Origin: an uncultured Ruminococcus sp.
Lineage (GTDB): Bacteria > Bacillota > Clostridia > Oscillospirales > CAG-272
Reading direction: 5' to 3'
Assembly (NCBI GenBank): GCA_964630695.1
Contig: CAZVYZ010000002.1
Location: forward strand, 8,951-72,950
Length of the DNA: 64,000 nucleotides
The translations under genes were made by a program, and so were the position numbers. Shown in pieces: positions 6,948 to 48,915 of this stretch (position 1 is its first letter; each line of letters opens with the position of its first letter). Below the pieces are notes generated by a model, which did not search any database, was not told the origin of the DNA, and saw only the letters and a program-made list of their open reading frames with translations.

Positions 6948-9182
6948 TCAATTGTCCTGTTTTCTTTTTCCCTTCAGGGCAACACCCACGAGGGAAACGA
7001 CCGCGAGCAGGACCACCCCCTCTGCGCCGATAACCGAGCCGCAACCGCCCTTCTTCTCCTCCTCGGGAGCAGTCTCGGTGGTCTGCGCGGGCTTGTTTCC
7101 GTCGTCTGCATCTGCGGGCTTCTCCTCCGAGCCGCCCGTGATGTTATAGGTTCTGCTGACAACCTTGGAATCGGTTCTGCCCTCCATCACGGCAATCACT
7201 TTCAGAATGCAGGACTTACTCAGCGTGATGGGACCCGTGTAGAGAATGCCGTTCTCGGCGGTCGGTGTGCTTCCGTCGATGGTGTAGTAAATCTTCGCGC
7301 CCTCGGTTGTACAGGTGACGGTAACGGTCTGATTGCCCTCGTATTTACCGCCTGCCAGACTCGGGTTCGGCTGTGCGACCGTCAGCGTGACCTTGTAATC
7401 AAAGGTCACCACGGAGCTGTCTATGTACCCGTCCTTCACGGCAATGACCTTGAGAACCGTATCTTGGGAAATGGTGATTGCGCCGTTGTAAAGCGTTCCG
7501 TTGGTTGCGCTCGGGGTGCTTCCGTCGGTGGTGTAATACAGCTTTGCGCCCTCGGTCGCGGTTTTCAGTTCGACCGAAATCTCCTCGGTGTACTTCTCCG
7601 ATACGGGGGTCAGCGCGTTCGGGTTTGCAACTTTCGTCTTGTTTGCTTTCTCCTCGGACTCATGGAAACTGACTTCCAGAATGGAGATTTCGGTCTCCCC
7701 GGCGTCATAGTAGAACCGGAGGGTAAAGTTGTTGTCGCCCACCCAATCTTTCCACATGTCGCTGTTCTCCCAGAGGTCGATGACCACGGTCTTATAGGTT
7801 TCGGATGGCTCCAGCGGAATCTTTTGCGAACGGCTTGCTTCTCTCGTCGCATCGTTATAATGGTCGGGATGGTACTCCACCTGCACGGAGGCGGAGCATT
7901 TGTAGGTCAGAGTCATGTAACGGTGATAGCCGTTCGGCATCGCCACGTTCGGATTACCAAACCCATAATAACTTTCCACGCGGATTGCATTTTCCGTGTC
8001 TTTCTTCACCGATTTCACCACGGCGCCGAATTCATCGTTGACGCCGCCCGCACCGAACAATGCGTTAAAAAGGTCGTTGTGGTAAACGCCGCTCGTTTCC
8101 TGCCACTCGCCGTTTTTGGAGCCGGCGACCAATCCGGCAAACGACCAGTAAATATCTGCGGGGATGATGGCGTTGAACTCCACTTTTGCCACCTTACTGT
8201 CTTCCAGACCCGCCTTGACCGCAATTGCCTGTACGGTCATTTTTCCGGTGACCGGAATCGGAGTGCTGTAGACAGGGCTTTCCGCCGTCGGTTTTTTCCC
8301 GTCGGTCGTATAGTGAACGGTCGCGCCCTCGGTCTTGGTTGCAATAGTGAGGGATTTGCCTGCGGGAATATTGCCGCCTTTAAGGTTAAAGGTCGGTTCT
8401 GCCACGATATTCAGATTGAGTTCGTAGACATACGAATTCACAGGGCTGTAGCGGTCGGTTGCAGGGTCGTAGGCAACCGTTTTGAGCGTAGCGGGCCCCG
8501 TGACCGAAACGGCTTCGGTATAATGGGTGGAAGCCTTGGTCGGAGTGGTTCCGTCCAGCGTGTAGTAAATCTGCGCGTTCGCGGTATCGGAGGTCAGTTC
8601 CACGCTCTGCGCTTCCTCGTAGTAGCCGGACCCAACGGACGCTTTGGCGGGGTGCGGCAGGGGCTTGCCCTCGTAGAAACTCTCTTGGCACTTCGCCTCG
8701 TTTTCCGCCGCCTCCTCGGTATCGAAGAAACCGATGTAGTCGATTACGTAGTAGGCGTCCTCACCCTCCAGAACTGGGAAAGTCAAAGCCCAGAAATCCA
8801 TCGTAACAGGCCAGTGCTCAACGTTTGCCTTGGCTCCGGTATCCTTATCCACCAGTTTTTCATCGAGTTTGACCGTATAGGTTTTCCAGACATCGTTCTC
8901 AATCTCCATGTTTTCGAGTGTCAGCACCGCAGAGGTAGCCCAACCGTTACCGCAACTCCCCGTCGCGGTCTGAAGCCCTGTATTGGTCGCGTTTTTCACC
9001 TGATAGTGAATGGAGAAGTAATTGGTAGCAGACGCATTGTAGGTCCACTCTCTGAGCAGGAACGACCATGCCCCCGCACGCTGGTCGGCAACCGCGCCGT
9101 GGAATTCCATTCCGTATCCGTTTTCAGAGTACGGTTTGTATCTGTCAAAGACGCTATCCGTACTGTTTTCTTTACTCGGCAT
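6948..9182 (-). CDS. Large surface-type protein: unknown N-terminal module, four CHB_HEX_C/Fn3_assoc-like repeats, C-terminal TM anchor
   Basis: Start taken at MPSKENST (residue 46 of the ORF), overlapping the upstream stop by 11 nt. The four repeat motifs are AQIYYTLDGTTPT, ATVHYTTDGKKPT, AKLYYTTDGSTPS and AKIYYTIDGSTPT. A hydrophobic tail (VVLLAVVSLVGVAL) is followed by KGKRK. No N-terminal signal peptide is present. Confidence 0.7.
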   Translation of the reverse strand: MPSKENSTDSVFDRYKPYSENGYGMEFHGAVADQRAGAWSFLLREWTYNASATNYFSIHYQVKNATNTGLQTATGSCGNGWATSAVLTLENMEIENDVWKTYTVKLDEKLVDKDTGAKANVEHWPVTMDFWALTFPVLEGEDAYYVIDYIGFFDTEEAAENEAKCQESFYEGKPLPHPAKASVGSGYYEEAQSVELTSDTANAQIYYTLDGTTPTKASTHYTEAVSVTGPATLKTVAYDPATDRYSPVNSYVYELNLNIVAEPTFNLKGGNIPAGKSLTIATKTEGATVHYTTDGKKPTAESPVYSTPIPVTGKMTVQAIAVKAGLEDSKVAKVEFNAIIPADIYWSFAGLVAGSKNGEWQETSGVYHNDLFNALFGAGGVNDEFGAVVKSVKKDTENAIRVESYYGFGNPNVAMPNGYHRYMTLTYKCSASVQVEYHPDHYNDATREASRSQKIPLEPSETYKTVVIDLWENSDMWKDWVGDNNFTLRFYYDAGETEISILEVSFHESEEKANKTKVANPNALTPVSEKYTEEISVELKTATEGAKLYYTTDGSTPSATNGTLYNGAITISQDTVLKVIAVKDGYIDSSVVTFDYKVTLTVAQPNPSLAGGKYEGNQTVTVTCTTEGAKIYYTIDGSTPTAENGILYTGPITLSKSCILKVIAVMEGRTDSKVVSRTYNITGGSEEKPADADDGNKPAQTTETAPEEEKKGGCGSVIGAEGVVLLAVVSLVGVALKGKRKQDN

Positions 9183-11649
9183 AATCCCACAGCTGCAAAT
9201 TGTTGAAGTCCCGCTCCAGATGTCCGAATATGCTTCCGTATTCGTGGACGAAGATATTGCCCTCCAGATTGTACCGTTTGGTTCCCCAACCGAAGCCGTC
9301 CACAAGCGCGCAGGCATTGCCCCACGTTGTGTTGTCGTGCATTCTCACGTTCTCATACAGCGGCTTCTCCCCGTTAAAGGAATCGGCAAACACCTGTCCG
9401 CCGTTGCTGCCGGCGCCGATTGCTCTCGCTCTGCCGAAGCCGCATCCCGTCCGACGCATCAGGTTGCCCGAAATATCCCAGTCCTTGCACTTGAAGTTTT
9501 CGTTGTTCGCCTGCTTTCCGCCGATATTCATCCAGAATTCGATGTTGGCAGAGTTGTTTTCGTAGCAGTTGTCCAGAACTTCCACGTTCTCCATCACAAC
9601 CCGCGTCAGTCCCTCCCAGCTCGATTGCTGGCTGGAGGTTGCGCCGTCGAAAATCTGGTGCTGGTAGTTGTTCAGAATGCGGAAGTTCTTACAGTTGCCC
9701 CAGTTCTGAATGCCCTCGCCGAAGCGGGTGGGCTCGTCTCTGCCGCCCCATGTATAGCCCTGCACGCTTCCGCCGCACCAGCCGATTTCGCAGTTCCGAA
9801 CCGTGAAGTCGACCGCCTGATTGACGGAAATACCGTGACAGCCCCAGTACTTGAACGCGAGGTTATCCAGCGTCACGTTTTTGGAAACGCTTTCGGTGCC
9901 GCCGAAGAAGCCGTAGCCCTCGACCACCAACTTGATTTTGCTGAACACCTCGGCAGGGTTGCCGCCGTCACAGTAGAGGTACAGTCGGCTCTCGGTCGGG
10001 TTGTGGTAATACTCCAGATTTTGGGCAAGGTCCTTTTGGTCCGTAAACGGGCGGGCATGGTGTGTCAGCGTCCCAAAGCCCGTGGGAACCGTTCCGAGTT
10101 CGATACTGGTATTGACCGCGTTTTTCTTCGTAATCTTCACGCCCCAGCCTTCGTCGTCGTTGAAAATGATATTTCCGATGTCGTTGCCGTCCGCCCCGTC
10201 AACCGAGGTGATGTACGATCCGGGAATATCCAGTTTCGGGTATTTGTCGGAAATATCAATGCCTTCGTAGTTCTTTCCGGGAGGGTTCGGCGTTTCGTAA
10301 GAACCGCTGTAGACCCAGAGATTTTCGCCAACGTTCGTCCAGTCCGAGGTTTTTGACGCATCAATGTAGTTGGCAAAAACCGGTTTTGCACCCGTCCCAT
10401 AGGCAGAGAAGGTCACGTTGGCTTTGGAGAGGAAACGCCCCTCCATATTCCAGATGTCTCCTCGCTTGAAAAGAATCACGCTCCCTGCCGGAACCGTCGT
10501 ATTGTTGACTCTCGTCAGCGTTTTCCACGGTTTGGCTTCGGACAGCCCGTCGTTCGCATCGTCTCCGCTGCTTGACGAGACGTAGTAAATCTTTCCGCTC
10601 CCCGTTACGCTGTACGCACTCTTTGCGTTCAGAATCGCGTCTCTGGCGGACTCAAAATTCCGGTCGAGCATTTCGATGAATTCGCTGTCCGCGAATTGCA
10701 TATTGTCAATAATCGGCATCACTTTGGTTTCCTTTACCGTTTCCAGATTGATTGTTTTTCCGATCTTGCCCGAGAGTTCGGTTTCAAAAAAGAGTTCTAC
10801 CAAACGTTCCGTTTGATTGAAAATGCCGTCCATTCCGTTTCCGACGAAGCACAAAGCCCCATCGCGGTATTCGTACAGCATGTTCAGGTCCTCGGTCGTG
10901 TCGAATCCGACGTAAAGATAGTTCCCTCCCGTCGGCTTTTCTTGGGAATAGGCAATCGGCATTCTCACGCCGCACAGTCTGCCGAATCCCGCGTGTACGG
11001 CTTTTGCCGCGTCCTCATAGCCCTTGCGGGCGGCAATCGTACACTTCCCGATGTCCACCGACGCAATGGAGATTGCAGTGTGCGGATAGGTATAGATTGC
11101 CTTGAACGCATCCCCCGTAGTGACGACAAGCCCCTTGTTCTCGGTATCCTGATAGAGTTCGACAAAGCGGTTGACCGCATTCTCCAACGCCTCGTCGGAG
11201 CCGCCGTAAATACGGACCTTTTTGCCGTCAAACGTCCAGCCGTAATCGTAGTAGGTCAGATTTTCGGTGGAAACATTGCCCGTGCGGTTGGTGTCCCCAA
11301 TCAGGATTTCATATTCCTGCTCCGCACTGCTGCTGTCCGACTTCACATCCATCCGCTGACCGAAATAGTCCTTGACGAGATTATAAAACAACGTGGCGGC
11401 GCCGTTCAGATTTCCGTCGGTGCTGTCCTCTCCGAACACAATGCGGAATCGATTCCCCGACACGATGTAGCGGTCCCCGCTCCCCGCGGTGTGGGATTCG
11501 GTATAGAATCCCACACCCTCTCCGTCGTTCTGCCGTTTATCCGTGCTGCTCGTTCCGTCGGTTCCGTCTTGCCCGCGCCCGCAGGAAGCCGTCAAAAGCA
11601 ACAGAACTCCGACAAGCGACAGGCATACAGCCTGAATGATTTTTTTCAT
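9172..11649 (-). CDS. Lipoprotein with right-handed parallel beta-helix (pectate-lyase-fold) domain
   Basis: 825 aa with signal plus lipobox (LLLTASC). Repeated N-x-x-V/I turns and the RNCEIGWCGG motif are typical of beta-helix repeat proteins. Confidence 0.75.
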   Translation of the reverse strand: MKKIIQAVCLSLVGVLLLLTASCGRGQDGTDGTSSTDKRQNDGEGVGFYTESHTAGSGDRYIVSGNRFRIVFGEDSTDGNLNGAATLFYNLVKDYFGQRMDVKSDSSSAEQEYEILIGDTNRTGNVSTENLTYYDYGWTFDGKKVRIYGGSDEALENAVNRFVELYQDTENKGLVVTTGDAFKAIYTYPHTAISIASVDIGKCTIAARKGYEDAAKAVHAGFGRLCGVRMPIAYSQEKPTGGNYLYVGFDTTEDLNMLYEYRDGALCFVGNGMDGIFNQTERLVELFFETELSGKIGKTINLETVKETKVMPIIDNMQFADSEFIEMLDRNFESARDAILNAKSAYSVTGSGKIYYVSSSSGDDANDGLSEAKPWKTLTRVNNTTVPAGSVILFKRGDIWNMEGRFLSKANVTFSAYGTGAKPVFANYIDASKTSDWTNVGENLWVYSGSYETPNPPGKNYEGIDISDKYPKLDIPGSYITSVDGADGNDIGNIIFNDDEGWGVKITKKNAVNTSIELGTVPTGFGTLTHHARPFTDQKDLAQNLEYYHNPTESRLYLYCDGGNPAEVFSKIKLVVEGYGFFGGTESVSKNVTLDNLAFKYWGCHGISVNQAVDFTVRNCEIGWCGGSVQGYTWGGRDEPTRFGEGIQNWGNCKNFRILNNYQHQIFDGATSSQQSSWEGLTRVVMENVEVLDNCYENNSANIEFWMNIGGKQANNENFKCKDWDISGNLMRRTGCGFGRARAIGAGSNGGQVFADSFNGEKPLYENVRMHDNTTWGNACALVDGFGWGTKRYNLEGNIFVHEYGSIFGHLERDFNNLQLWDYAE

Positions 11650-11688: not shown

Positions 11689-11841
11689 TCAGCCAATATT
11701 CGTGGGGAACAGCTCCGCAAACAGACCTCCGTCCTCCTCTTTGCCCTCAAGGTTGTTGGCGGAAATCAGCGACACCGTCAACACGTCCGCATTCTCTGTC
11801 AACATCAGCCGGAACTCTGCTTTTACATACGTTTTTCTCAT
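11689..11841 (-). CDS. 50-aa sORF, paralog of 35876..36007 (leader-peptide-like)
   Basis: Not in the track (<60 aa). ATG is preceded by GAGGG 6 nt upstream. The product is MRKTYVKAEFRLMLTENADVLTVSLISANNLEGKEEDGGLFAELFPTNIG. Its N-terminal 24 aa align with the second sORF. Confidence 0.4.
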   Translation of the reverse strand: MRKTYVKAEFRLMLTENADVLTVSLISANNLEGKEEDGGLFAELFPTNIG

Positions 11842-11877
11842 TGCAATACCCTCATTTCCATAAATTTGTTGTTCAGG

Positions 11878-13413
11878 TCAGTGATAGGTAACCGGTGTTT
11901 CCGCGTTGCTCCGGTCGTATACAACCGTAAAGGTCGGACCGCAGACTTCCGCGCCCTTAATCTTCGCATACACGCAGACTTTGAACGTGATTTTGTCATC
12001 GGTGAAAGCCGAATCGGGAATTCCGTTGATGCAATAGGTGAAGTACGCGCTGTTGTCATCCTGTCCGGTCACGGAATTTTCCTCAAGGCCGATAAGCACG
12101 CCGTTTTCCATAATCTGACTGTAAACGTAATTCTGAATCTTGCCCGTTGCAATCGTTTCGGTCACCTTGTCACCCAGGCAGAATTTGAAGCCGAATTCTT
12201 CGTAAGCCTCGGACATATAGTCGTCAATCACGCCGACAAACCGAATGCCGGTGGTTCCGTCGACTTTCGCCTGCACGCCGCTGAACCGCACCGCGTCGCC
12301 GTCAAATACGCGTGCGCGTTTGGTGTTCGCGTCTGCCGCCGCGTCGTTGTGGAAGAAGCCAACGTAATCAATGACATATTTCATCGAGGTATCCGCCGAC
12401 GGGAAGTCAATCGAGGTAATCCCAAAATCCTGAATCGGGTACATTCCGGAGGGATGTGCCTCATCATCAATGTAAATCCTTGTTACAGACCATCCATCCT
12501 TGTCCTTAGTGGTCACAACATCTTTGATTGTCACATTGATTTTAACATTATTATTCTCATAGCCGATTTTTACCACGTCCTTTGTAAATGCGGGCGGGTC
12601 CACCGGAGTTCCGTTCAGGTCTGTTGTTTTATATCTCAGTTCAACAATTTTGGCACACACATATTGAAGATTCGTATTGCTGATACAAATCGGCGACCAA
12701 AGCCCCTCCGTTTTCTTGGTAACCATCACGAGATTGCCGTCCGCATCATTGTAAAAGTCTCTCCCGTCTTTGGGGGCAAACTGGTTAATACCGCTGTCGG
12801 TAGCCCACGTCTGCCAACCATCCGTGAGATGGATTCCCGTAAAACGAATCACCTGTCCGTCATCGGCACCTGCCTGATTTTTGGAAACAAAGGTCCCGTT
12901 CTCTGCAATGCGGATGCTCTCGCCCTTGTGCAATTCTGCCTGCGTCGTCTCCGCCGCTTCAACCGATTGGAACAGTCCGATGTATTCGATTACAAGCGTT
13001 GTCCCCTCGGTAAGCCCGCTGAAGTTGAGTTTGTTACAGTTGTTCAGATTGTTCTCGTCATCTCCGTTGACCTTCCAGTTTCCGAAGGGTTTGTCTTTCT
13101 CCGTTGGGGTCAGCGCGCAAACGGTTTCCACCCAACTGCCGTCTGCACGAAGTTCCAGACTGCCATCTGACCCGAGGCCGTTTCCCGTCCCCTTAAATGC
13201 AACGGTCCCGTTCTCGGTCTGACCGAGAACCCGATAGCGGATTGCAATTGCGCAGATATCATAGAATGCGCCATAGTTATTCGTATTCGGATATATTGAC
13301 AAGAACAGAGAAAACAGCCGAACGCAAACGTCCGTTCCGGATATTCCGTCTTTGGTCTGCCGAAATGCAAAGAATACTAAATTTTGTCTATCCGACAAAA
13401 AAGCACAAGGCAT
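11878..13413 (-). CDS. Multi-module protein of unknown function (two IDY[IV]GFF-type modules); 5' end probably truncated
   Basis: 511-aa ORF. The only upstream ATG lies inside a terminator hairpin, with no RBS and no signal peptide. Motifs LVIEYIGLFQSVEAAE and YVIDYVGFFHNDAAAD match VIDYIGFFDTEEAAE in 6948..9182. Confidence 0.5.
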   Translation of the reverse strand: MPCAFLSDRQNLVFFAFRQTKDGISGTDVCVRLFSLFLSIYPNTNNYGAFYDICAIAIRYRVLGQTENGTVAFKGTGNGLGSDGSLELRADGSWVETVCALTPTEKDKPFGNWKVNGDDENNLNNCNKLNFSGLTEGTTLVIEYIGLFQSVEAAETTQAELHKGESIRIAENGTFVSKNQAGADDGQVIRFTGIHLTDGWQTWATDSGINQFAPKDGRDFYNDADGNLVMVTKKTEGLWSPICISNTNLQYVCAKIVELRYKTTDLNGTPVDPPAFTKDVVKIGYENNNVKINVTIKDVVTTKDKDGWSVTRIYIDDEAHPSGMYPIQDFGITSIDFPSADTSMKYVIDYVGFFHNDAAADANTKRARVFDGDAVRFSGVQAKVDGTTGIRFVGVIDDYMSEAYEEFGFKFCLGDKVTETIATGKIQNYVYSQIMENGVLIGLEENSVTGQDDNSAYFTYCINGIPDSAFTDDKITFKVCVYAKIKGAEVCGPTFTVVYDRSNAETPVTYH

Positions 13414-31135: not shown

Positions 31136-31813
31136 TCACTTTCCCGTGCGGTACAGACAGAGGTCATCGATATAAAAGACAGTGTCCGATCCGATATCCG
31201 GCTGAAAGGAAAAGGAAAGATACCTGACTTTTTTCGTCTCCGACAGCTCAGCGGGATCAATCGGAATTTCCACCAGAACCCATTGCCGCGGCGGAACGCT
31301 TGTAACCGTTGTATACTCCCCGTCATCGGCGAGCTTCAACAGCGCCGTGAAGTCCATTTCCTTTTGTTGGGCATTGTAAACCCAAAAGGAAATCTTTTTT
31401 ACACCTCCAAGATTGCTGAAATCCCCTCGATGAACCAAATTCAACGGCTGCGCCACCGAAACCGCCGCATAGGAGTTGTATTCCTTTTTGCAAATCAGCT
31501 TGGCACTCCGACTTCCCGAATGCACGGTTTCCTTCTCCACCGTAACGGTCATATTCCGTCTTGCCTGCATTGGGGAAAAATCGGCAGGTCTTTCGTAATC
31601 ATTGACGATAACACGATACAGTCCGTCCGCTCCGAGTTCCGGCATCGGTGGCTTCCACGAGGTGATCTCCCCATAGGTCACGGAGTCCGTATCGGCAAGG
31701 GACGAACCGGAGCCGGCGTCGGTAGCCGACGCGGACGGTTCCTGCCCTCTCCGGCAGCCTGCAACGGTCAGACAAAGCACCGCTGCCAACAGGAAATAAA
31801 CCGCTTTTCTCAT
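31136..31813 (-). CDS. Lipoprotein, unknown function (CBM-like beta-sandwich suspected)
   Basis: Start at MRKAVYFLLAAVLCLTVAGC (lipobox), 225 aa. ATGA overlap with the upstream gene. Confidence 0.6.
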   Translation of the reverse strand: MRKAVYFLLAAVLCLTVAGCRRGQEPSASATDAGSGSSLADTDSVTYGEITSWKPPMPELGADGLYRVIVNDYERPADFSPMQARRNMTVTVEKETVHSGSRSAKLICKKEYNSYAAVSVAQPLNLVHRGDFSNLGGVKKISFWVYNAQQKEMDFTALLKLADDGEYTTVTSVPPRQWVLVEIPIDPAELSETKKVRYLSFSFQPDIGSDTVFYIDDLCLYRTGK

Positions 31814-34428
31814 TCCCGTTCCTTCCTTTCCGCAGAAACGCTCAGAATGCAAATCTCCGTTGCCGTATTATTGTTCCAGACCAACTTCAGGTTTTCCAAT
31901 TTTCCGCGATTGGAAACCAAGCCGTAACCGGACAGTTCGACATAGTTGATTCCGGGTTGAAGTGTCAGCTTGACAGCCGGCATGGAAGGAAGATTGGAGG
32001 CGCGGTCATAGAACTGCGCATATTTCTTTCCCGCATTCTGTGCATAAAGCGCGGCGGTTACCACACGGTCGGAATCGTTATAGATAACAAGCCAAAGCGA
32101 TTGGGAGATGCGATCCACATCCAGATCGGCAAGGTTCAAAACCGTCTCCTGCCTGCCGCCCGCGATCCGGAGCCGATATGCCGCCCTGCCGCACGCTGCG
32201 TCATGCGCTGTATAGCTTCCGCTGTTCGGCGCGCTGATTGCGATGCGGTCGGCAATTCCGTCCGCAGAAACCGCTTTCTGTCCGGCTCCCAGCCAGAAGG
32301 TTCCATTAACCGTTCTCGCCCCGTCGGTTGCCGAAAGCGTAACCGTTTCGCTCACCGTCAGATCGGCGGTCAACAGCAACTGCCCGTTTCCGCTTGTTTT
32401 CAGTGCTTTTCCGTCGGAGGAAAGCGTTACATTCGCGGGTGCCTTCAGCTTAATTGTGACAAGCGCCGCTTTCTTTTCGACATCGGTTACGGTCACACCC
32501 ATTTCCAACAGCTCCAATACCGAAGCCATGCTTTCCCGAAGCGTTGAAAATCCGTTTGTCAGACTGTCCCCGATCTGTACCTGCAATCCATCGTAATATC
32601 CGAGCGTGAACAGTTCCATCAGGCTGTCGAATGCGGCATCCGTATACACGCCTCCGCTTTTCTCCACCTGTTCACGGAGCATCGACTCCATGAGGTACAG
32701 CACCTCATAATCCTCCATGCTGTCACGCAGAACCTCCAGTCGGATACTTCCCACAGGACCTGCAATGCCATACGGTGCACCCGGATAGAAGAGAAAACCG
32801 TCTCCGTTTGAAGTCGGAAACCGTTCGGCAGTTCCGTAGCAGTCCTGCAATTCGCTCATCACACCGTCATCGCCGTTTTCCATTCGGTAATAAAGGTTGG
32901 TATACCACATCTGCTGACCGATGATGTGATACTGCTTCATAAACCATCCGAATGAACGCAGGGTCAGCAAATCGTCATCAAGGTGCAGGGTGGGATATGG
33001 CGAGCGCGGCAGACAGCCGGTATAAGCCCAGAGTTCCCCGCTGTCCGTATTGTAATAGGCATTGTAGCGTGCCCGTTCCGCTTCGTAAAAGGCACGTTGC
33101 TCTGCCGTTTGCAGTTCTCCCAACTGAACGCATCGGGTAAAGGGATTTTCGAAATTGAAGCGCGAATCATTCCCGTAGGCAAGCGTGACGAAATGCTGCA
33201 CCGTCCGCATATCCTCCAGCACTTCCAGAATGAAATCCTTCTTGCATTGATGCACAAACCCCATCCAAAGCGTTCCGCTTTCGTCGACCTGCTTTTTATA
33301 CTCCCGATACAGCGCTTCCTGCGCCTCGTGCAGCTGCTCCGTCACATAGGCGGCATCCTCGGGCTTGTTCCGATAGTCCGCCTCATCCAGACAGGTCACC
33401 CACATTCCGAGTTTTTCCATCAGATTGACATTCTCTTTGAGCGAACGCTCCAGAAGCATCTTCAGAGTGTCTTTGTACAAGTCAATATCAACAAGGCTTG
33501 TCGACTGCTTACCGCTCGGTAGCGTGCCGCTGACGCGCTTATACGGAATGTTAATCCACGAGCAACGCACGTCCTGCGTATACTTGACCGTGGCATTCAG
33601 CCAGTTCCGCAAATCGTCACCCGAGGGGTCAAAGTTATGTCCCAAACCGACAGGCAAGGACTGCGGGTTCAGGCGATACCGCAGAAGTGCCTCGGTGTAA
33701 AGCGCCTCCATTTCGTTTGTATTGCTCAACTCACCCATTCCGAGTGCGTCATAATACACCGCATAACAGCTTTTCTGGTGCGTTTCGTCCGAAACCGTAA
33801 AATTCCAAACCGTCACCTCAACCGGAACCTCAACGCTTTCCCTGTCAACCGTCAGCGTAAAATTGCCGCTGTAAACACCGGCAGGCTGTTCCTTCGGAAT
33901 CAGGACCGTAAACCAGATACCCTGATTTGCCCCTTTCCGAATCTGATTTTCCCCATATTCCGCCGCCGTATCCAACGGCAGAAGCGCATCGGGATACATT
34001 CCCTCCTCGCATCCGGAAAGTGAATCATAGACCTTGGAAACCGCAATGTACTTTTCGTGATAGACCGAAAATTGCTCCCGCGGCAGCACTGCATCCCCGC
34101 AGGTCAGGTCATTCACGGTCACGTTGTAATCCAACACATTCCGTTCTGCCGATAAAATCAGCTGTGCGCTTTCATATTCGTTTCGGAACGCCTTGAACGT
34201 CAACGTCTGCGAACCGGAGGAAAACTTCTCCGTCAGCAGCATCTTGACCGTAGACGGTGCAGTACAGTACTGCACGCCGGATATCCGATTCGGCGTATCA
34301 TTCCGTCCGTTCCCGTTTTCCGTTCCGCTTTCGACCGTGCCGTTTTCCGCAGGCTTCCGACAGGCGGTCAGACTGCCGAAGAGCAGGATCACGGCAAGCA
34401 ACAGCGTTGCAACTCTTTTCAGCTTCAT
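31810..34428 (-). CDS. DUF4091-domain glycoside hydrolase-like lipoprotein (GH123-related)
   Basis: Start at MKLKRVATLLLAVILLFGSLTAC, 872 aa. Motifs FKAFRNEYESAQLIL and SNGDGFLFYPG are typical of DUF4091. Confidence 0.75.
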   Translation of the reverse strand: MKLKRVATLLLAVILLFGSLTACRKPAENGTVESGTENGNGRNDTPNRISGVQYCTAPSTVKMLLTEKFSSGSQTLTFKAFRNEYESAQLILSAERNVLDYNVTVNDLTCGDAVLPREQFSVYHEKYIAVSKVYDSLSGCEEGMYPDALLPLDTAAEYGENQIRKGANQGIWFTVLIPKEQPAGVYSGNFTLTVDRESVEVPVEVTVWNFTVSDETHQKSCYAVYYDALGMGELSNTNEMEALYTEALLRYRLNPQSLPVGLGHNFDPSGDDLRNWLNATVKYTQDVRCSWINIPYKRVSGTLPSGKQSTSLVDIDLYKDTLKMLLERSLKENVNLMEKLGMWVTCLDEADYRNKPEDAAYVTEQLHEAQEALYREYKKQVDESGTLWMGFVHQCKKDFILEVLEDMRTVQHFVTLAYGNDSRFNFENPFTRCVQLGELQTAEQRAFYEAERARYNAYYNTDSGELWAYTGCLPRSPYPTLHLDDDLLTLRSFGWFMKQYHIIGQQMWYTNLYYRMENGDDGVMSELQDCYGTAERFPTSNGDGFLFYPGAPYGIAGPVGSIRLEVLRDSMEDYEVLYLMESMLREQVEKSGGVYTDAAFDSLMELFTLGYYDGLQVQIGDSLTNGFSTLRESMASVLELLEMGVTVTDVEKKAALVTIKLKAPANVTLSSDGKALKTSGNGQLLLTADLTVSETVTLSATDGARTVNGTFWLGAGQKAVSADGIADRIAISAPNSGSYTAHDAACGRAAYRLRIAGGRQETVLNLADLDVDRISQSLWLVIYNDSDRVVTAALYAQNAGKKYAQFYDRASNLPSMPAVKLTLQPGINYVELSGYGLVSNRGKLENLKLVWNNNTATEICILSVSAERKERE

Positions 34429-34459
34429 CTCGCATCCCTCTCCTTTCCTCCTGTAGCAT

Positions 34460-35860
34460 TCATCTTTTTCCGCCCTCCTGCGATTCGGAATAGGTGACCC
34501 GGCGGATCGGAGACAGCCCGTGATCCGCCGACTGCACAAATGTAATCTGTTTCTTCCCGCGAAGCGCGTTGTAATACGCCGCCATCCCCGTCGGAGTTGC
34601 CGTATAGTCGATCAGTCCCGCCTGCGAGATGACAGTCGGGCAGGTTACGCGGGCGGCAAAGAAAGCCGAATCGAAGTAGTTCAGATTTTCGGTATAATCC
34701 GGCAACCATCCCGCCAAGCGCCCGATGCTTCTGCCGCCGACATCACACATCCAGACGATAAACACCGAAAGCTCCGTAACGCCCGGTTCCAGTGCCGCCA
34801 CCGCAGTTGCCTGAAAGCCGCCCATGCTCCCGCCGAAAAGCAGAACATCTTTGCCGTTCCATTCCTTCATCGTTTTCAGAAAGCGGAGCGCCTGCACATC
34901 CCGCAGAATCATATTGCGGAAATAACTGCCCGACGGATCGCGGTAGTCCTCCGCTTCAAAGCCGTAATGCTTCAGCGCGCCGTTTTGCAGGTCGGCATAA
35001 TAGCCTTTCTCCCGCCCGTTCTCCATGCTGTGCGCATTGACCGCAAAGGTTATACACCCATCCGTACACTGCGGAGACGGAGAAAAGGATGCGTTGTAGC
35101 CGTAAAAGAACATTCGGATTTTCAGGCTGCCTGCCTTTGCGTTTTTCGGGACGGTCAGATACCCCGTCGCGGGCGCGTCCGCATCATGGGAGCGGATTCC
35201 AACGCTGTACGCCCGAAAATTCGGATTGGGTGAATCCGCAGGGTCGATATACAGCAACTCGGGCGAAACCGCATCCAATTCTCCAAGCTGTGTCTGCCAG
35301 AACGCATCAAAATCTTTCGGGCATTCCGTTCCGGTCCGAATCTGCTCAAACCCGCAGATTGCTCCGCCGACAAACGGCTGTACTTCCCCGAGCTTTTCCC
35401 CATCGCGGTCGCAGGCTTCCACCGTGACCCGAATACTCCCCGGGGTTTTCATGGAAAACGTCAGGGTCAGCCTGCCGCTGTCTCCGCTGTCCGTTCCGCT
35501 CCAGAACTGCCCGTCATCCGCCTCCGCGTGCCAGACCAGTTTCGCGCAGGGGTAGGTCAGTCTGAAGTCGGCGGTGTCGGTCAATCGGATGTGAAACCGG
35601 ATCGACTCCCCCACCCGATAGGATATGGCATCCTTTTCTGTTTCTCCGTAGAGATACGCCACCCCCTTTGCCCGAATCGGCGGGTCGGTGCGCACCTCTG
35701 TTTCCGTATCTGTCATTGCTGTTGTTTGTGCCAAGTCCGATTCCGTCCCCGCGCCGCCGATTGTTTCCTGCATCGGGATACCGGAAGCGCACCCCGAAAG
35801 AAGGAACCCGCACAGGCAGAAAAACGCAAGTCCGATTCGCACCAATCGAAATCCTTTCAT
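34460..35860 (-). CDS. CE7-type acetylxylan esterase / cephalosporin-C deacetylase family lipoprotein with extra N-terminal domain
   Basis: Lipobox LLSGC. PKDFDAFWQTQL, the nucleophile elbow GGSMGG and a C-terminal HG motif are present. Confidence 0.75.
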   Translation of the reverse strand: MKGFRLVRIGLAFFCLCGFLLSGCASGIPMQETIGGAGTESDLAQTTAMTDTETEVRTDPPIRAKGVAYLYGETEKDAISYRVGESIRFHIRLTDTADFRLTYPCAKLVWHAEADDGQFWSGTDSGDSGRLTLTFSMKTPGSIRVTVEACDRDGEKLGEVQPFVGGAICGFEQIRTGTECPKDFDAFWQTQLGELDAVSPELLYIDPADSPNPNFRAYSVGIRSHDADAPATGYLTVPKNAKAGSLKIRMFFYGYNASFSPSPQCTDGCITFAVNAHSMENGREKGYYADLQNGALKHYGFEAEDYRDPSGSYFRNMILRDVQALRFLKTMKEWNGKDVLLFGGSMGGFQATAVAALEPGVTELSVFIVWMCDVGGRSIGRLAGWLPDYTENLNYFDSAFFAARVTCPTVISQAGLIDYTATPTGMAAYYNALRGKKQITFVQSADHGLSPIRRVTYSESQEGGKR

Positions 35861-35875
35861 TCAGTCTGTTGTCGC

Positions 35876-36007
35876 TCAGAAAAGAGAGCTGATATTCAGA
35901 TTTTCAATATAATCACTTGCCGCATCGATTCCTCCGCTTACCAATGTCAGAACATCATCGGAAAGCCGCTCCATCAGGAAACACGGTTTTTCATACAGTT
36001 TCTTCAT
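35876..36007 (-). CDS. 43-aa sORF with double-glycine-leader-like motif, paralog of 11689..11841
   Basis: Not in the track. AAGGAG sits 8 nt upstream of the ATG, and the ORF exactly fills the 36021-35861 gap. The product is MKKLYEKPCFLMERLSDDVLTLVSGGIDAASDYIENLNISSLF. Confidence 0.45.
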   Translation of the reverse strand: MKKLYEKPCFLMERLSDDVLTLVSGGIDAASDYIENLNISSLF

Positions 36008-36021
36008 AGCAAATACTCCTT

Positions 36022-37827
36022 TCATGCAGCCGCGTCGGTCGAATATTCAAACACCAACATATCGTCATATGTGCGAGCCCCGTTCTGATCGTGGAAAGAT
36101 CTGACCGCAAAGGTCACGCTTCCCCGATTCTGCGGCAATCCGTCCACCGTTGCGGTAAAGAGATAGCTGTATCCGCTAAGAATCGAAGCTGCGTCTTTTT
36201 TCTCTCCGTCCGCCATAACCGATTTGTAAACGGTTTGCGTGGAGGGCGCTTTGCCATCCGTCAGATTATTGACGGTCTTTACATCCGCACCGTCAAGACG
36301 GATAACGGTGATTTCAAGACCAACGCTTTCAAAATTCGCCAGTTCGGTTTCCGCACAGCGAAGGAGTCCGATCAAACGAACGCTCCGTGTTCCGTCCGTC
36401 TCCAACCTGTCCTGATATACCGCGGCATTGGTAACGGCAGTGCCGTTATCTTTTCCGTTGACGACATCGGAATAGAAGTGCAGAACCCCCATCGGGAGCG
36501 GCTTGGTTGCAGGCGTGGTCGCAAAACTGCCGGAAAAATCAACCGTAACGGTGTCATCCGAAAAGCGAAGCGAACGGTAACCTTCGGAAACAGAGGCGAT
36601 TAACTGATTTGCCTGCGTATTGGTTGCTTGGTTTGAACTGAAATTGCCCCATCCCCAATTCGTAACACCTTCCACATCACCGACAGTAACAACTTCCACA
36701 TCACCGACAATCCCATCTGCCCGATAGGTTGAATAGGAAGCGGCAATGCCAATCAGCTTTCCGTAATTATATAGAGGAGTTCCTGCGATTTCAATCTTCC
36801 CACCAAGAAGGATTGACCTGAAGGTCACGGTAGAGTTATCCCCTCCGTTTGTTGATCCGACCAACCCACCGATTTTTCCGACATTTCCCTTCCCGGTGAG
36901 CTTCATCATTCCGTAAAACGCGCTGTTCTTAACGGTTAAATTGCCGGGACGTGCGCTCGATACATCTCCGTTGTTCGCTCCGACCAATCCGACAAATCCA
37001 CCGATCCCAACATTTCCGTATGTTTCCGTAAAAGAGGTTTCCACCACTCCGTCAAATACGCAGTTTGTAATCAGCGTGTCGCTGCCCTGACCTCCTGCAC
37101 GTTCCCGCACGTGACCGAAAAATCCACCGGCATTTATGTTGGTAGCCTTCACATTTGCGGACATGACGGTATTTCCGACCGTCAGCTTTTTATCAAGCTC
37201 CCAACCAATCAACCCGCCGACGCACATTGTACCCGAAACAGTTCCGCGGATGATACACCCCGCAACCGTCATCTCATCGGCGCGGGAATCTCCCGCAATC
37301 CCGCCGCAGTATGCGCCCGAAGCGGAAACCGCAATCTCCAGATTCAGGTTTGCAAACAGCACTTTTCCTGCCGTTCCGGTATCAGAACCGATTCTCCCGA
37401 ACAATCCGCCGATCTGCGATGTACCGGATATCGATGAAGCCTTCACCGTGAGATTTTTGATTCCAACCGTAAAGGAATCATCGCCAACGGGCATCAGGCA
37501 ACTGCCGAACAGTCCCTGATAGTTGCTTTCGCTTTCCGATTTCAATCCGCTGACGGTATGTCCCTGACCGTCAATCATGCCGGAAAAGGTTACGTTATTC
37601 TTTCCCGCGAGCGGCCATACAGCATTCGCCATGTCAAAATCGGCGTTCAGATAAACCGTCTGCTTTGCAAAGGTATCCCCGCCCGCCAAGCGGTTCGCAA
37701 AATCCAGCAACTCCTCCTTTGTGTGAATTTGAAGTTCTGTCTCCGCACTCGCGGAAAGGGAAAGAATCGGAAGGAAGGTCATCAACAATCCAACCAATAA
37801 AAGGGATGCCAAGAGTTTTCTGTTCAT
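36022..37827 (-). CDS. Secreted GLUG-motif repeat protein
   Basis: Start at MNRKLLASLLLVGLLMTFLPILSLSASA. Repeated GGLFG / GGIAG / GGLIG / GGFFG / GGFVG / GGLVG (GLUG) motifs. Confidence 0.7.
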   Translation of the reverse strand: MNRKLLASLLLVGLLMTFLPILSLSASAETELQIHTKEELLDFANRLAGGDTFAKQTVYLNADFDMANAVWPLAGKNNVTFSGMIDGQGHTVSGLKSESESNYQGLFGSCLMPVGDDSFTVGIKNLTVKASSISGTSQIGGLFGRIGSDTGTAGKVLFANLNLEIAVSASGAYCGGIAGDSRADEMTVAGCIIRGTVSGTMCVGGLIGWELDKKLTVGNTVMSANVKATNINAGGFFGHVRERAGGQGSDTLITNCVFDGVVETSFTETYGNVGIGGFVGLVGANNGDVSSARPGNLTVKNSAFYGMMKLTGKGNVGKIGGLVGSTNGGDNSTVTFRSILLGGKIEIAGTPLYNYGKLIGIAASYSTYRADGIVGDVEVVTVGDVEGVTNWGWGNFSSNQATNTQANQLIASVSEGYRSLRFSDDTVTVDFSGSFATTPATKPLPMGVLHFYSDVVNGKDNGTAVTNAAVYQDRLETDGTRSVRLIGLLRCAETELANFESVGLEITVIRLDGADVKTVNNLTDGKAPSTQTVYKSVMADGEKKDAASILSGYSYLFTATVDGLPQNRGSVTFAVRSFHDQNGARTYDDMLVFEYSTDAAA

Positions 37828-37906
37828 CTTTTTTGCCTCTCTTTCTTTATTTGTGTAAGCGGTTACACACCGGCGCACAAAAAGTGTGCAACCGTTTACA
37901 AAAACA

Positions 37907-37935
37907 ATTATATCATAAAGCATTCAGGTTGTCAA
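37907..37935 (-). promoter_or_regulatory. Consensus promoter of the GLUG-sORF-CE7-DUF4091 operon
   Basis: Minus strand: TTGACA (37930-37935), 17-nt spacer, TATAAT (37907-37912). Confidence 0.65.
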
Positions 37936-38001
37936 TAGAAAAATCGCAATCGACAGCGCCAAAAAACAGCACTCAAATTTGGGCAATATGACGGTTTTCG
38001 G

Positions 38002-40410
38002 TCACGCAAACCAACCGTCACGAAATCCCGCCAAGGTCATGCCGCGCAGGTAACGATCCAAATCGATTTTCCGTTCCAAGTAACTGATATAATGGTTCTT
38101 TCCGCTGTGGCGTTTTGCGTGCAACGTATATTCCCACTCCAGCAGATAGAATTCCTGCTCCCCCTCTCGGGTCGGAATCCCGCCGAGCCTGACCGATTTG
38201 TCGATACCGATTGCACACTCCCCCGAGAGAACGGTTTCCCGGTCAGACAGTCTTTGAACCCGATACGAAACCGTGACGGGCTCTGTCAGGTCGTTGACAC
38301 CGTATACCGCAATCTCCCCGCCCTTCGGTTCCGCGCACATCAGGGCAATCGGTGCCTGTGACCGCTTGAGATAGCTGTACGCCAATTTTTTCTTTCCGTA
38401 ATAGTCCACCACGGCATCGGAAATCTGCGCCCAACCATCAATCAGGTTCCACCAAATGATTCCGGCGCGGACGCCTTTTCCGATGCGGAAGGTCTCCACA
38501 AAGTATTTGTCCGCCTCTGCCTGAGAAATCTGGCTTTCCGCCGCAAACCGCGTCAGGTCCTCCGAATCCTCTCCAAACAGTGTTTGAACCTGCTCTGCCA
38601 TCAGCCCGATCCGATAGGCATAGGGACACCATTTGCTGATTTCCATGCACGCCGCATGGGTCAGCCATTCCGCATTTGCACACTCACCCTGCGGAAAGCG
38701 GCGATGGGACAGTGCATCGGCAGAGAGAAACCGCCTCAGAGAATCCGGTTCGGGGCATCCGTGATACCCAATCTCGCTTGCAAAACGGCAGACCGTATTG
38801 CTGTAATACTGCCCCTTGAACCAATCGCGCGGCCCCCAGATGTGATCCTCGGAAAGCGGAAGTCCCGTGGCGAAAGCCTTCTCGTCCACAAAGGGAGAGG
38901 ACGGCAGATACGGACGGGTCATATCCTCGCGTGCCAGCACCTCGGGGAGCACGCGGCGAGTCAGGATGTTCCGATTTGGGTCGAATTTTCTTGCATCCCA
39001 TGAGCGAAATACGTCACATTCATTGTCTCCCGCCCACAGTGCCAGCGAGCAATGTCCGCGATAGCGACGGACAACCTGCTCTGCCTCCGCCCGCAGTTTG
39101 CCGACAAAGGCTTCATTCTGCGGGTAAATTCCACACGCCATTGCGAAATCCTGCCAGATCAGAATACCGTTTTCATCGCAGAAATCAAACAGGTCCTCAT
39201 CCTCATATGCATTCCCGCCCCAAAGACGGACCATGTTACAGCCCAGATCGTTCAGCATGGGCAGAATTTCCCGCAGGCGGGACTTCGCCTGCGATCGGAA
39301 TGCGTCCACAGGAACCCAGTTGGTTCCGAGGACAAAAATCGGCTGTCCGTTTACGCGGAACCCGAATTTGCCGCATCCCATCTCTGTCCCGTTCGGCTCG
39401 ATGACTGAGGAGCGCTCCAATTCCACCGTGCGGATACCGAGACGGAAGATCCACTCGTCCATAACCGTCTCCCCGTACAGAAGCGTTGCCCGTACATCGT
39501 ACAGATTCGCCTCCCCCGCGTTTCGCGGCATCCAGAATTTCGCATTGTTGACCCACGCAGTCAGGTTTCCCTCCGAATGGCGGAGCGGCTCTTCACAACA
39601 AAAGGAACGGTCTCCGCAATTTCCGACGATGCGCAGGCGGTAAGCCGATGCCGCCGCATCCCCCAAGACCGCGCGGTAACGGAAGGTCAGTCGTGCCGTC
39701 TTTGCCGAAGGATTGACATCTGCCGTGTACCCGAACAGGTCATCCAACCGCACCTCGGGTCGCCGCAAAAGCTCCACGCTCCCCGTAATCCCCCCGCAGC
39801 AGAGCCGCGGCATGATGTCCCAACCGAAACTGCTTGCTGCCTTTCGCAAAGCAAGACTTTCGTAATTGTAAAGTTGGGCGGCACACATCGCATCGGTTTC
39901 CAAGCCGCGCGCATAAATCGTTGCGGGCTTGATATGCACGACCAACTCGTTCTCCCCGTCCCACAGCAGTCCGTCCATATCCGCTTCTTGGCAGAGAAAC
40001 ATATTCTCACATTCCAGAATCCGCTCCCCGTTCAGAAACACCTCCACCGCCGTGTCGATTTCCGCGAAGCGAAGAACCCACCCGTCGCTCTCCTTCGGCT
40101 TTGCAAACCGACAGGTATAGAACTGGTGCATGACCTCATATTTCTGCATCTCAATGGTGTGAGTTCCGAAATACGGGTCTTCACAGAGTCCCGCACGGAA
40201 AAGCGACAGCTCGAAATTGTTCGGAACGGTCGTTGTAATATGCGCAAAGCCGCCCGCCTCCAACGCCGCCCTTGTGCACAGGCGCGGGGTGGAAAGCGTA
40301 ATATCCTTTTTGTCACACTCGCCCCTTTTCCGAAGCTCCTCATGGGATGCCCAGAACAGCTCCCATTCCCCGTCCAAGGACACCGTCTGATCGTACAAAT
40401 GCCGAATCAT
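38002..40410 (-). CDS. GH2 family glycosidase, beta-mannosidase-like
   Basis: 802 aa with VRLWGGNAYEDEDLFDFCDENGILIWQDF and LWAGDNE (acid/base region). Confidence 0.8.
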   Translation of the reverse strand: MIRHLYDQTVSLDGEWELFWASHEELRKRGECDKKDITLSTPRLCTRAALEAGGFAHITTTVPNNFELSLFRAGLCEDPYFGTHTIEMQKYEVMHQFYTCRFAKPKESDGWVLRFAEIDTAVEVFLNGERILECENMFLCQEADMDGLLWDGENELVVHIKPATIYARGLETDAMCAAQLYNYESLALRKAASSFGWDIMPRLCCGGITGSVELLRRPEVRLDDLFGYTADVNPSAKTARLTFRYRAVLGDAAASAYRLRIVGNCGDRSFCCEEPLRHSEGNLTAWVNNAKFWMPRNAGEANLYDVRATLLYGETVMDEWIFRLGIRTVELERSSVIEPNGTEMGCGKFGFRVNGQPIFVLGTNWVPVDAFRSQAKSRLREILPMLNDLGCNMVRLWGGNAYEDEDLFDFCDENGILIWQDFAMACGIYPQNEAFVGKLRAEAEQVVRRYRGHCSLALWAGDNECDVFRSWDARKFDPNRNILTRRVLPEVLAREDMTRPYLPSSPFVDEKAFATGLPLSEDHIWGPRDWFKGQYYSNTVCRFASEIGYHGCPEPDSLRRFLSADALSHRRFPQGECANAEWLTHAACMEISKWCPYAYRIGLMAEQVQTLFGEDSEDLTRFAAESQISQAEADKYFVETFRIGKGVRAGIIWWNLIDGWAQISDAVVDYYGKKKLAYSYLKRSQAPIALMCAEPKGGEIAVYGVNDLTEPVTVSYRVQRLSDRETVLSGECAIGIDKSVRLGGIPTREGEQEFYLLEWEYTLHAKRHSGKNHYISYLERKIDLDRYLRGMTLAGFRDGWFA

Positions 40411-40418
40411 AATGCGTC

Positions 40419-41237: not shown

Positions 41238-41240
41238 GTC

Positions 41241-42470: not shown

Positions 42471-42474
42471 CCCT

Positions 42475-44073: not shown

Positions 44074-44115
44074 GATTTTGTCCCTCCCGCCAGAAGCGTA
44101 ATCGGTTACACAATG

Positions 44116-44144
44116 ATTATACCACAAAATCCATATCATGTCAA
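44116..44144 (-). promoter_or_regulatory. Consensus promoter of the aGal-GH28-SGNH-GH2 operon
   Basis: Minus strand: TTGACA (44139-44144), 17-nt spacer, TATAAT (44116-44121). Confidence 0.65.
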
Positions 44145-44391
44145 GCATTTTTATTTTGTCTCATTACACAAAATCAGTCACACCAAATTATGCTTTATGC
44201 ACAATGCGTATTTGCGATGATTCAACATATCGTTTTCCCTTTTTCCCCAACCGTATCCCTTCAGGTGGGTACTTCACCTTCCCCGCTCACGGTGAACCGG
44301 GGCGGGGGTCAGCGCGGAGGCAGAGTTCCGTCTTGGCAGGAAAATTGTTTTTTTTGCGACAGCCCATTTTCTGCCGATGTCCTCCCCGTTT

Positions 44392-47038: not shown

Positions 47039-47148
47039 AGCAATCCTCCTTATTATGTTTTATTCTGCCAATTTGTCACCGATAAATAGCCAAGTTACCT
47101 AATGACTTTTCCATTTTTCAAAAATAAATTAGTTTCGACAAAATTCAC

Positions 47149-47177
47149 TTGACTTTTAACAAACTATGAATTATAAT
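47149..47177 (+). promoter_or_regulatory. Consensus promoter for the 47-aa sORF
   Basis: TTGACT (47149-47154), 17-nt spacer, TATAAT (47172-47177). Confidence 0.6.
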
Positions 47178-48914: not shown

Positions 48915-48915
48915 G

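Follow-up and report, generated by a model that had tools for sequence, protein, structure and literature searches.

A large family of small peptides with a leader-like N-terminal module, encoded behind secreted surface-protein genes of gut Clostridia

Small peptide genes that follow the gene of the protein acted upon are known from Bacillus, where the Phr peptide genes lie just downstream of rap; Phr pro-peptides bear a Sec signal peptide and act on a regulator that is cytoplasmic. Another group of small precursors is recognized by its leader. The motif Y-x-x-P-x-h (h, hydrophobic) is the one by which discrete RRE domains (recognition elements of RiPPs, the peptides that are made by ribosomes and modified after translation) bind the leaders of lasso precursors, and it is also present in pyrroloquinoline quinone (PQQ) precursors and in the recently described leaders of linear polyphosphorylated peptides (LPPs); lasso and LPP leaders further have a conserved Thr for the leader peptidase, at position -2 in the former and at -1 in the latter (PMC13381572). 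Here we describe an unannotated small open reading frame, sORF1, on the minus strand of a stretch of 64,000 nucleotides from an uncultured Ruminococcus sp. (contig CAZVYZ010000002.1; the whole stretch is referred to as the window), together with its relatives. Its product, MKKLYEKPCFLMERLSDDVLTLVSGGIDAASDYIENLNISSLF (ATG 36007-36005, TGA 35878-35876), contains the [Y/W]xxPxh plus Thr motif, with Y5, P8, F10 and T21. Residues 1-24 (36007-35936) are a conserved leader-like module, MKKLYEKPCFLMERLSDDVLTLVS, and residues 25-43 (35935-35879) are a variable acidic tail with LF at its end. An original prediction, made from the letters of the window, had placed a 43-codon reading frame here, between the stop at 36022 and the start at 35860 and with AAGGAG 8 nt upstream, and the DNA agrees. 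The same prediction remarked in passing on the likeness to the YxxPxL motif bound by RRE domains, and this motif turned out to be the feature that defines a whole family.

sORF1 and its paralogue in the window, sORF2 (50 aa), are true protein-coding genes. A word-indexed protein search with sORF1 returned close relatives only (P0001-P0008), all of them in the same operon slot, in the order GH28, GDSL, GH2, a secreted protein of ~600 aa, sORF, AXE1 and GH123. The position is kept in L001-L014, next to a flanking protein that is only 39-65% identical, and the more distant positional orthologues include P0010 and P0013, with neighbour proteins 58% and 39% identical, respectively. When compared with L001, where the neighbour protein is 65% identical, sORF1 has a ratio of non-synonymous to synonymous substitution rates (dN/dS) of 0.16, while the flanking genes have 0.18-0.21; its central 14 codons, ERLSDDVLTLVSGG, show 8 synonymous and no non-synonymous changes. 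Because the position is kept beside a protein so diverged and dN/dS is low, sORF1 must be more than a chance reading frame. For sORF2, comparison of orthologues gives a dN/dS of 0.25-0.40 over the whole frame and 0.15-0.23 over the N-terminal 25 codons, and the N-terminal half is under stronger constraint than the tail. Hence the small gene is a genuine one, as had been supposed: the frame evolves under codon constraint and its neighbours are conserved. A reading of the region as an RNA element was tried and given up, as an Rfam scan of the sORF region matched no family.

Expression is documented for a relative. Among the '4k families' of small proteins, cluster 11299 has a ribosome-binding site in 34 of its 34 members and an RNAcode p of 2.7e-7, and it is one of the 623 families with more than 10 reads per kilobase per million (RPKM) in MetaRibo-Seq of human stool, with values of RNA 14.6 / Ribo 115.3 and RNA 0 / Ribo 41.5 (PMC7324362 supplement). 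The representative of this cluster, MKKKYISPEMDIIEFDTKDVITTSG...NWSDFY, which comes from Eubacterium ventriosum and CAG:156, belongs to the same family as sORF1.

sORF1 and sORF2 have no similarity that BLASTP can find. Profile searches in 1.84 billion representatives and in a 5.8-billion set, however, gave intermediates which bridge the two, for example P0019 (MKKTYEKADFLLMPALDADILTVSL...ATLFPSTI). A hidden Markov model (HMM) was then built from 98 family peptides with both window clades excluded and tested on 1375 six-frame segments of the window; it matched sORF2 at E=1.9e-6 and sORF1 at E=1.2e-4, and the next window match was at E=1. The sORF2 orthologues P0011, P0018 and P0019 lie between homologues of the same two flanking genes, and the C-terminal 220 aa of the protein encoded upstream of sORF1 share one BLAST cluster with those of the protein upstream of sORF2. 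The bridging sequences and the independent HMM indicate that sORF2 is a true paralogue of sORF1, which the original prediction had said of this copy, despite the absence of BLASTP similarity.

Metagenome contigs were scanned with a degenerate pattern that describes, at the DNA level, M-[KR]-K-x-Y-x-x-[PA]-(9-10 aa)-D-[VI]-[LIV]-T-x-S, which yielded at least 120 loci; all family counts given here out of 117, 101 or 100 rest on these listed matches. The loci, from gut and rumen metagenomes, encode at least 101 distinct peptides, so the two window copies are far from being the only occurrences, and nearly every match is a complete reading frame of 33-64 aa. An HMM search of the loci added tandem copies which the pattern had missed, and several copies are present per genome and per locus. 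As judged from these sequences, sORF1 and sORF2 are members of a large family without a name, made up of peptides of 33-64 aa from Clostridia of the gut and rumen; a few of its cases are Bacteroidota-like. P0014, P0015, P0082 and P0131 were rejected as spurious or as clustering artefacts. The database protein P0005 (65 aa) consists of the N-terminus of the window frame 55719-56144 (MKGCESMGRPKGSRNVVRAKSDY) followed by sORF1, and is apparently a chimera made in assembly, with its junction at a short string common to both.

The consensus of the pattern set reads M-K-K-x-Y-x-x-P-E-h-E-[IV]-[IV]-E-F-[DE]-x-E-D-[VI]-[IL]-T-T-S-G, followed by a variable tail. Columns that the pattern does not fix (E9, h10, E11, h12-13, E14 and F15) are strongly conserved, and so are the size of the reading frame and its genomic position; in an unbiased alignment M1, Y5, D18, L20 and T21 are invariant and a C-terminal Phe is nearly so. 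The tails have a median length of 22 aa and a median net charge of -3, are rich in Gly, Asp, Asn, Ser and Glu, and contain almost no Cys. They often end in an aromatic residue or in Leu-Phe, and an aromatic residue stands within the last four positions in 63 of 101. Both window peptides have net negative tails that contain or end in LF, and neither has a signal peptide or a Cys pattern. All this points to a two-part architecture, with a conserved N-terminal module of ~24 aa and a variable acidic tail. The members from L082 and L112 have long His/Gly-rich tails (..HGHHYGWGDPQPGHGNDHGHGHNHGGH), and the L112 copy lies between SSB-like and RtcB-like genes and not behind a surface protein.

In public records the members are named "hypothetical protein", for example EDM51741.1 and EDM51046.1 of Eubacterium ventriosum ATCC 27560 and WP_158574506.1. 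Neither Pfam nor NCBIfam models recognized the two sORFs (no match at E<=10) or 10 typical members; a weak match, to thiopep_precurs (E=0.026, failing its cut-off), was seen only for an atypical member of 87 aa. Searches of the PDB with the family profile and with both partner proteins gave nothing useful, and the phage and plasmid collections contained no real matches. AlphaFold2, run on sORF1 with a 15-sequence alignment, returned a mean predicted confidence (pLDDT) of 57, that is, an essentially disordered chain, and the predicted disorder of the lone peptide would fit what leader peptides are. Literature searches with sequence strings and keywords retrieved one catalogue row; a paper on the motif of the family, on its position rule or on what it does was not found. 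As far as we could find, what is new, in comparison with the leader-dependent peptides already known, is a leader-like module which lacks a biosynthetic cluster and is hard-wired to surface-protein genes; the family itself is already present in databases and catalogues as hypothetical.

The position of these genes is as constant as their N-terminal module. In 97 of the 117 cases no more than 60 nt separate the start of the family frame from the stop of a large frame on the same strand, whose product we call the partner; the gap is typically 11-20 nt, and some frames overlap by 1 or 4 nt. Twelve of the 13 members without an upstream frame lie at the end of a contig, and a Shine-Dalgarno-like site precedes 106 of the 117. 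For sORF1 the gap is 14 nt and for sORF2 it is 36 nt. The Shine-Dalgarno site of sORF1 abuts the TGA of the upstream gene (36024-36022), an order seen also in L001, L005, L014 and L016; since the site comes directly after the stop codon, the sequence implies translational coupling. Signal-peptide-like N-termini are present in 45 of 52 complete partners as compared with 69 of 208 other frames. The partner of sORF1 has a signal peptide, and that of sORF2 has one in its orthologues, the window copy being truncated at its 5' end. The original prediction of an orphan peptide family tied to surface glycan-degrading operons stands as far as the orphan family and the secreted or surface-protein operons are concerned. 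Glycosidases in themselves are not what the family is consistently associated with; the association is with the 3' ends of genes for surface proteins that bear a signal peptide.

Where partners match Pfam, the families (LRR_5, DUF285, F5/8-C, Flg_new, Glug, CBM26, Big_2, cohesin and MucBP) are of the Gram-positive surface repertoire; the majority of partners have no match. A terminal domain of ~160 aa, marked by G[LI]RF and placed at the very last residues, is found in 33 of 77 distinct partners and in 6 of 322 control frames. In many partners the C-terminal domains are related to one another and of beta-sandwich type. By eye, many other partners share a terminal pair of beta-strands of the form Y-h-h-h-h-h-x-G-[IV]-P...h-x-h-x-h. 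Minimal modules exist, made of a signal peptide, one beta-sandwich and the sORF, and modules occur in tandem in L049, L064, L095, L127 and L129. Partners with quite different C-terminal regions carry the same N-terminal module on their follower peptide. About 40% of the members have no gene on the same strand within 400 nt downstream. We also considered a fusion to the upstream protein by read-through or frameshifting and rejected it, as the gaps are spread over the frames (52, 25 and 20) and long extensions in frame are absent. In L084 (9511-9681) and L137 (3118-3288), family-like sORFs lie 33-46 nt behind proteins with C-terminal sorting domains of the type IX secretion system (T9SS) of Bacteroidota (...GLYIQNGKKIIK), and because these sORFs follow proteins of that kind, the module may extend beyond Firmicutes.

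The ends of the tails, of W-S-D-F-Y, E-L-P-h or L-F type, track the class of the partner's C-terminus, although co-inheritance alone could explain this. One locus type offers something more direct. In L129 (10621-11199), and also in L049 and L127, a lipoprotein of ~150 aa has a long low-complexity linker rich in Ser, Thr, Glu and Lys and ends in ..MPDDGLNWSPLVPVN. The end of this lipoprotein, ...DDGLNWSPLVPVN, recurs as the tail, ...DDGLEWSPLIPVN, of a family sORF 9 nt downstream. Nearly the same 15-mer is therefore present on two carriers, one a Sec-exported lipoprotein and the other an MKKxYxxP module, and both are conserved between species. Because the lipoprotein carries the same 15-mer, the tail could well be the extracellular effector part, which is a hint that it acts outside the cell.

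The explanation that we prefer, with a confidence somewhat short of even, is a composite one: a peptide that partners a surface protein and consists of a docking or processing-handle module and an effector tail. The follower peptide would be made in step with the surface protein and would work as its partner, as both the coupling and the correlation of tail with partner class suggest. Given that the N-terminal motif resembles RRE-bound leaders, the module may serve as a handle for docking or processing, used by a recognition protein, or by a peptidase and an exporter, which the peptides share and whose genes lie elsewhere in the genome. On this view the tail, the variable part, would act on its cognate surface protein or together with it, being a ligand, an anchor or a maturation factor for its C-terminal domain. 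In a bolder form, which is speculative and in our judgement rather unlikely, the two genes would constitute an unrecognised module of gut Firmicutes and possibly Bacteroidota: one would encode a secreted surface protein whose last domain is a beta-sandwich, and the other a follower peptide with a leader. A cell would have one RRE-type system, acting in trans, for recognizing, cleaving and exporting all of its follower peptides, and the released tails would bind, anchor or mature their partners. If that were true, it would represent a new functional class of leader-dependent peptides, serving cell-surface assembly and not antibiosis or quorum sensing.

Several points weigh against a surface partner with a processing handle. 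Within the scope of our neighbour scans, no RRE, leader peptidase, maturase or dedicated exporter is found near the more than 100 family loci, and genes of this kind usually lie in one cluster with a RiPP precursor. Neither a Sec signal nor a hydrophobic segment is present in the peptide, so that its export is purely an inference. The tails contain no Cys, no fixed modifiable residue and no peak of Asp/Glu at core positions 7-9. They are also no more similar to the C-terminus of the cognate partner than to that of non-cognate ones (p=0.12); mimicry of the partner's C-terminus, tried as a general rule, was rejected for this equality of scores and holds only for the lipoprotein of L129, L049 and L127. 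Part of the conservation is built into the pattern set, as the pattern fixes M, K, Y, P/A, D, T and S, and unbiased support for these columns comes only from the ~20 members found by HMM. For the window copy of sORF1, direct evidence of expression or of the peptide was not found: RNA-labelled public runs gave two short contigs that cover it, of uncertain origin as the libraries may contain DNA.

The search for processing and export genes proceeded from the window outwards. Pfam scans of 43 reading frames in it found no C39 exporter, radical-SAM enzyme, lasso enzyme, RRE, maturase or sensor kinase, and none of these was seen when the small gap frames were read by eye. This is in accordance with the original view that the locus is not a classical bacteriocin locus. 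At the other loci, 104 flanking frames matched 94 different Pfam families, of which none recurs beyond sugar-metabolism genes. Genes for peptidase-containing ATP-binding transporters (PCATs), radical-SAM enzymes, lasso enzymes or RREs are not among the most frequent families listed for these 104; two of the 104 matched Transglut_core. Where a tight partner is missing, the loci, read by eye, contain no biosynthetic genes.

This absence would fit a peptide that never left the cytoplasm. It could be an unprocessed mini-chaperone or adaptor, which binds the C-terminal domain of the nascent partner, or a component of the Sec or chaperone machinery, and which keeps the partner competent for export or times its release. 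The strict translational coupling to the 3' ends of genes for secreted proteins fits such a role, and so do the missing signal peptide, the tracking of partner class by tail class and the predicted disorder, which is consistent with folding upon binding. However, the module matches leader motifs and not any known chaperone, and it is kept unchanged with partners whose C-terminal regions are quite different. The 15-mer at the extracytoplasmic end of the lipoprotein also points to a partner outside the membrane. We regard such a cytoplasmic accessory as a real possibility, though not a likely one.

A scattered RiPP precursor, belonging to the lasso or LPP class or to a new RRE-dependent one, is quite improbable in our opinion. 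The position behind surface-protein genes would then be merely a site of expression, and the product would be an antimicrobial or a signal that has nothing to do with the adjoining gene, with many precursors served by one enzyme as is the case for the prochlorosins. Indeed the YxxPxh motif with an invariant Thr, the conserved leader followed by a hypervariable core, and the several copies per genome and locus are what one expects of such precursors. Several members even seemed to fit a lasso ring from Ser-1 to Asp/Glu-9, and if T21 is numbered -2, Asp stands at core positions 6 and 10 of sORF1. This lasso reading was given up, as the frequency of Asp/Glu in the family set is flat, at 0.14-0.30, across core positions 6-17. 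The family has no FET or HQ motif, B, C, SpI or kinase genes were not found in the window or among the most frequent neighbour families listed, and the near-universal placement after genes for secreted proteins would be left unexplained, together with the correlation between tail and partner class.

The original prediction itself was of a double-glycine leader, cleaved after G26 by a C39-peptidase ATP-binding cassette (ABC) exporter encoded elsewhere, with an anionic peptide of 17 aa, a pheromone or a bacteriocin, as its product. sORF1 and its close orthologues do fit the consensus LSxxELxxIxGG, at L15, S16, L20, V23, G25 and G26 in sORF1 (6 of 7 consensus positions by eye), and the stretch ERLSDDVLTLVSGG is invariant under heavy synonymous change. 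However, GG is confined to these closest orthologues. It is replaced in the positional orthologues P0010 (SLASGN) and P0013 (SLEQGY) and in the paralogue sORF2 (SLISAN); within 6 residues of the invariant Thr it occurs in 14 of 100 family peptides, and the loose -4/-7/-12 spacing is fitted by 4 of 100. No GG-leader model of NCBIfam or Pfam matched, and a C39-peptidase ABC exporter is found neither in the window nor among the most frequent families listed for the 104 neighbours. The GG of the sORF1 clade is an incidental feature, or at most a local variation at the point where the module passes into the tail, and we consider cleavage behind it highly improbable. Finally, we give almost no credence to a functionless peptide whose frame is only a translational device, acting through the traffic of ribosomes, by protecting the mRNA or by a coupling with the gene that follows: the tight spacing, the placement of the Shine-Dalgarno site and the mid-operon position of sORF1 would suit it, but there is constraint at the amino-acid level with saturated synonymous change, the same N-terminal motif runs through ~100 divergent members, ~40% of them have no downstream gene on the same strand within 400 nt, and Rfam has no match.

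The need for attention to this family is easy to illustrate. It is abundant, it includes a cultured organism, Eubacterium ventriosum, and it follows an unusually strict position rule, also in glycan-degrading operons, while the small proteins of gut anaerobes are mostly uncharacterised. If the peptides do partner surface proteins, they would belong to an unknown step in the assembly or regulation of the surface of Gram-positive gut bacteria. The leader-type motif provides a handle for seeking the recognition protein, and the motif and the position rule together make a simple annotation aid for genes that pipelines in many cases miss or label "hypothetical".

The features of the two loci are collected in Table 1.

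Table 1. Coordinates of sORF1, sORF2 and their adjoining features in the window
Feature	Position	Strand	Remarks
sORF1 coding sequence	35876..36007	-	43 codons + TGA, 132 nt; family HMM E=1.2e-4
sORF1 Shine-Dalgarno site AAGGAG	36016..36021	-	8 nt before ATG; abuts TGA of upstream gene
Upstream partner gene of sORF1	36022..37923	-	633-aa ORF; secreted, signal peptide, GLUG-like repeats
Downstream gene of sORF1, AXE1/CE7-type esterase	34460..35860	-	lipoprotein signal (..LLSGC)
sORF2	11689..11841	-	50 aa, MRKTYVKAEFRLMLTENADVLTVSLISANNLEGKEEDGGLFAELFPTNIG; family HMM E=1.9e-6
sORF2 Shine-Dalgarno-like site GAGGG	11849..11853	-	7 nt before ATG
Upstream partner gene of sORF2	11878..13413	-	C-terminal 'G[LI]RF' domain, as in many partners
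Downstream gene of sORF2	9172..11649	-	825-aa lipoprotein, no Pfam match; follows the sORF in L015, L019 and L020

A second in-frame ATG of sORF1 is present at 36025, where it overlaps the upstream stop. Because the six codons from there to 36007 differ non-conservatively among orthologues (VFA, VPG, AFA), the start at 36007 is the likelier one, and we take the six extra codons as a Shine-Dalgarno spacer. The partner of sORF1 gave no matches in a Pfam scan; its orthologues align only from residue 33 on, and its true start is likely M33 at 37827 (MNRKLLASLLLVGLL...). At its end is a C-terminal region of beta-sandwich type (...YLFTATVDGLPQNRGSVTFAVRSF...). The ATG of the esterase gene lies 15 nt beyond the sORF1 stop, and the gene order is kept in L001-L014. 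The whole operon (31810-44148) comprises GH28, GDSL esterase, GH2, GLUG-like protein, sORF, CE7 esterase, GH123, GH28 and solute-binding protein (SBP) genes and is kept in several uncultured Clostridiales (L001-L013); an AraC-type regulator precedes the L011 copy. Its gene content is consistent with a locus for the utilisation of pectin or of host-glycan side chains. The genome nearest to the window is the metagenome-assembled genome (MAG) UMGS1014 of an uncultured Clostridiales, and DNA of the window occurs in human and pig gut metagenomes.

In the partner of sORF2, the HMM of the C-terminal domain matches the near-identical copy in L118 at E=5.8e-19. The window gene lacks ~100 N-terminal residues, including the signal peptide, that are present in the L020 orthologue, with homology beginning at ~13320. 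The truncated form is also present in another sample (L118), and it may be a decaying or re-started gene.

Elsewhere in the window, the region ~45900-56200 is a prophage-like island with a tyrosine integrase (45899-47038), an Mrr-type nuclease (47586-48914), several small regulators of XRE type and a large terminase frame with an intein splicing domain (54097-55722, continuing 53316-53603). At 17365-20654, on the minus strand, a fragment of a TrbL-type conjugal-transfer protein adjoins two BspA-type leucine-rich-repeat proteins, and this is possibly the remnant of an integrated conjugative element between two glycan operons.

How, then, does the family compare with what has been described? The likeness to double-glycine leaders is limited to the sORF1 clade, which has LSxxVLxxVxGG at the right distance from the N-terminus and then a short anionic peptide. 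Neither GG nor the -4/-7/-12 positions are kept in orthologues, paralogue or family, a PCAT gene was not found in the window or among the most frequent neighbour families listed, and the conservation lies further towards the N-terminus than the part in which a GG leader would have its information. With lasso precursors the family shares a total length of ~40-50 aa, an N-terminal [Y/W]xxPx[LVIAFY], a conserved Thr near the junction, a hypervariable C-terminal part and the disorder of the peptide when alone. It differs from them in that the distance between Y and T is greater by 1-2 residues, the ring signature of Gly/Ala/Ser/Cys-1 with Asp/Glu-7-9 is missing, and genes B1, B2 and C are not nearby (in the window or among the most frequent neighbour families listed), the coupling being to surface-protein genes instead.

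The LPP precursors of Bacillota resemble the family in their conserved N-terminus with YxxPxh, the Thr at the cleavage site, the highly variable C-terminus, the several precursors per genome, and their occurrence in Bacillota and at loci for cell-surface polysaccharides (PMC13381572). Their leaders, however, read YxxPxVLxHQxIxFETxxS, while here the sequence is YxxPEhEhhEFxxxD[VI][IL]TxS, in which H-Q and F-E-T are absent; the SipW-like peptidase, discrete RRE, HprK-like kinase, nucleoside triphosphate (NTP) transferase and MsbA-like exporter were not found in the window or among the most frequent neighbour families listed. By these features of sequence, with no Asp/Glu peak, no HQ/FET motif and no cluster genes, the family appears to belong to neither the lasso nor the LPP class.

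The '4k families' of Sberro et al. (PMC7324362) contain the same family, as cluster 11299. In the catalogues it is split into many clusters at 50% identity and has no function assigned, and its leader-like motif and position rule were apparently not noted.

The arrangement of the genes is reminiscent of Phr and rap. Here there is no signal peptide and the partner is a secreted protein, which sets the family apart. In both cases, however, a small peptide is encoded directly 3' of the protein on which it acts or, in this family, would act; the two genes often overlap or are coupled, and the mature part of the peptide is variable and, as in Phr, would be specific to the cognate partner.

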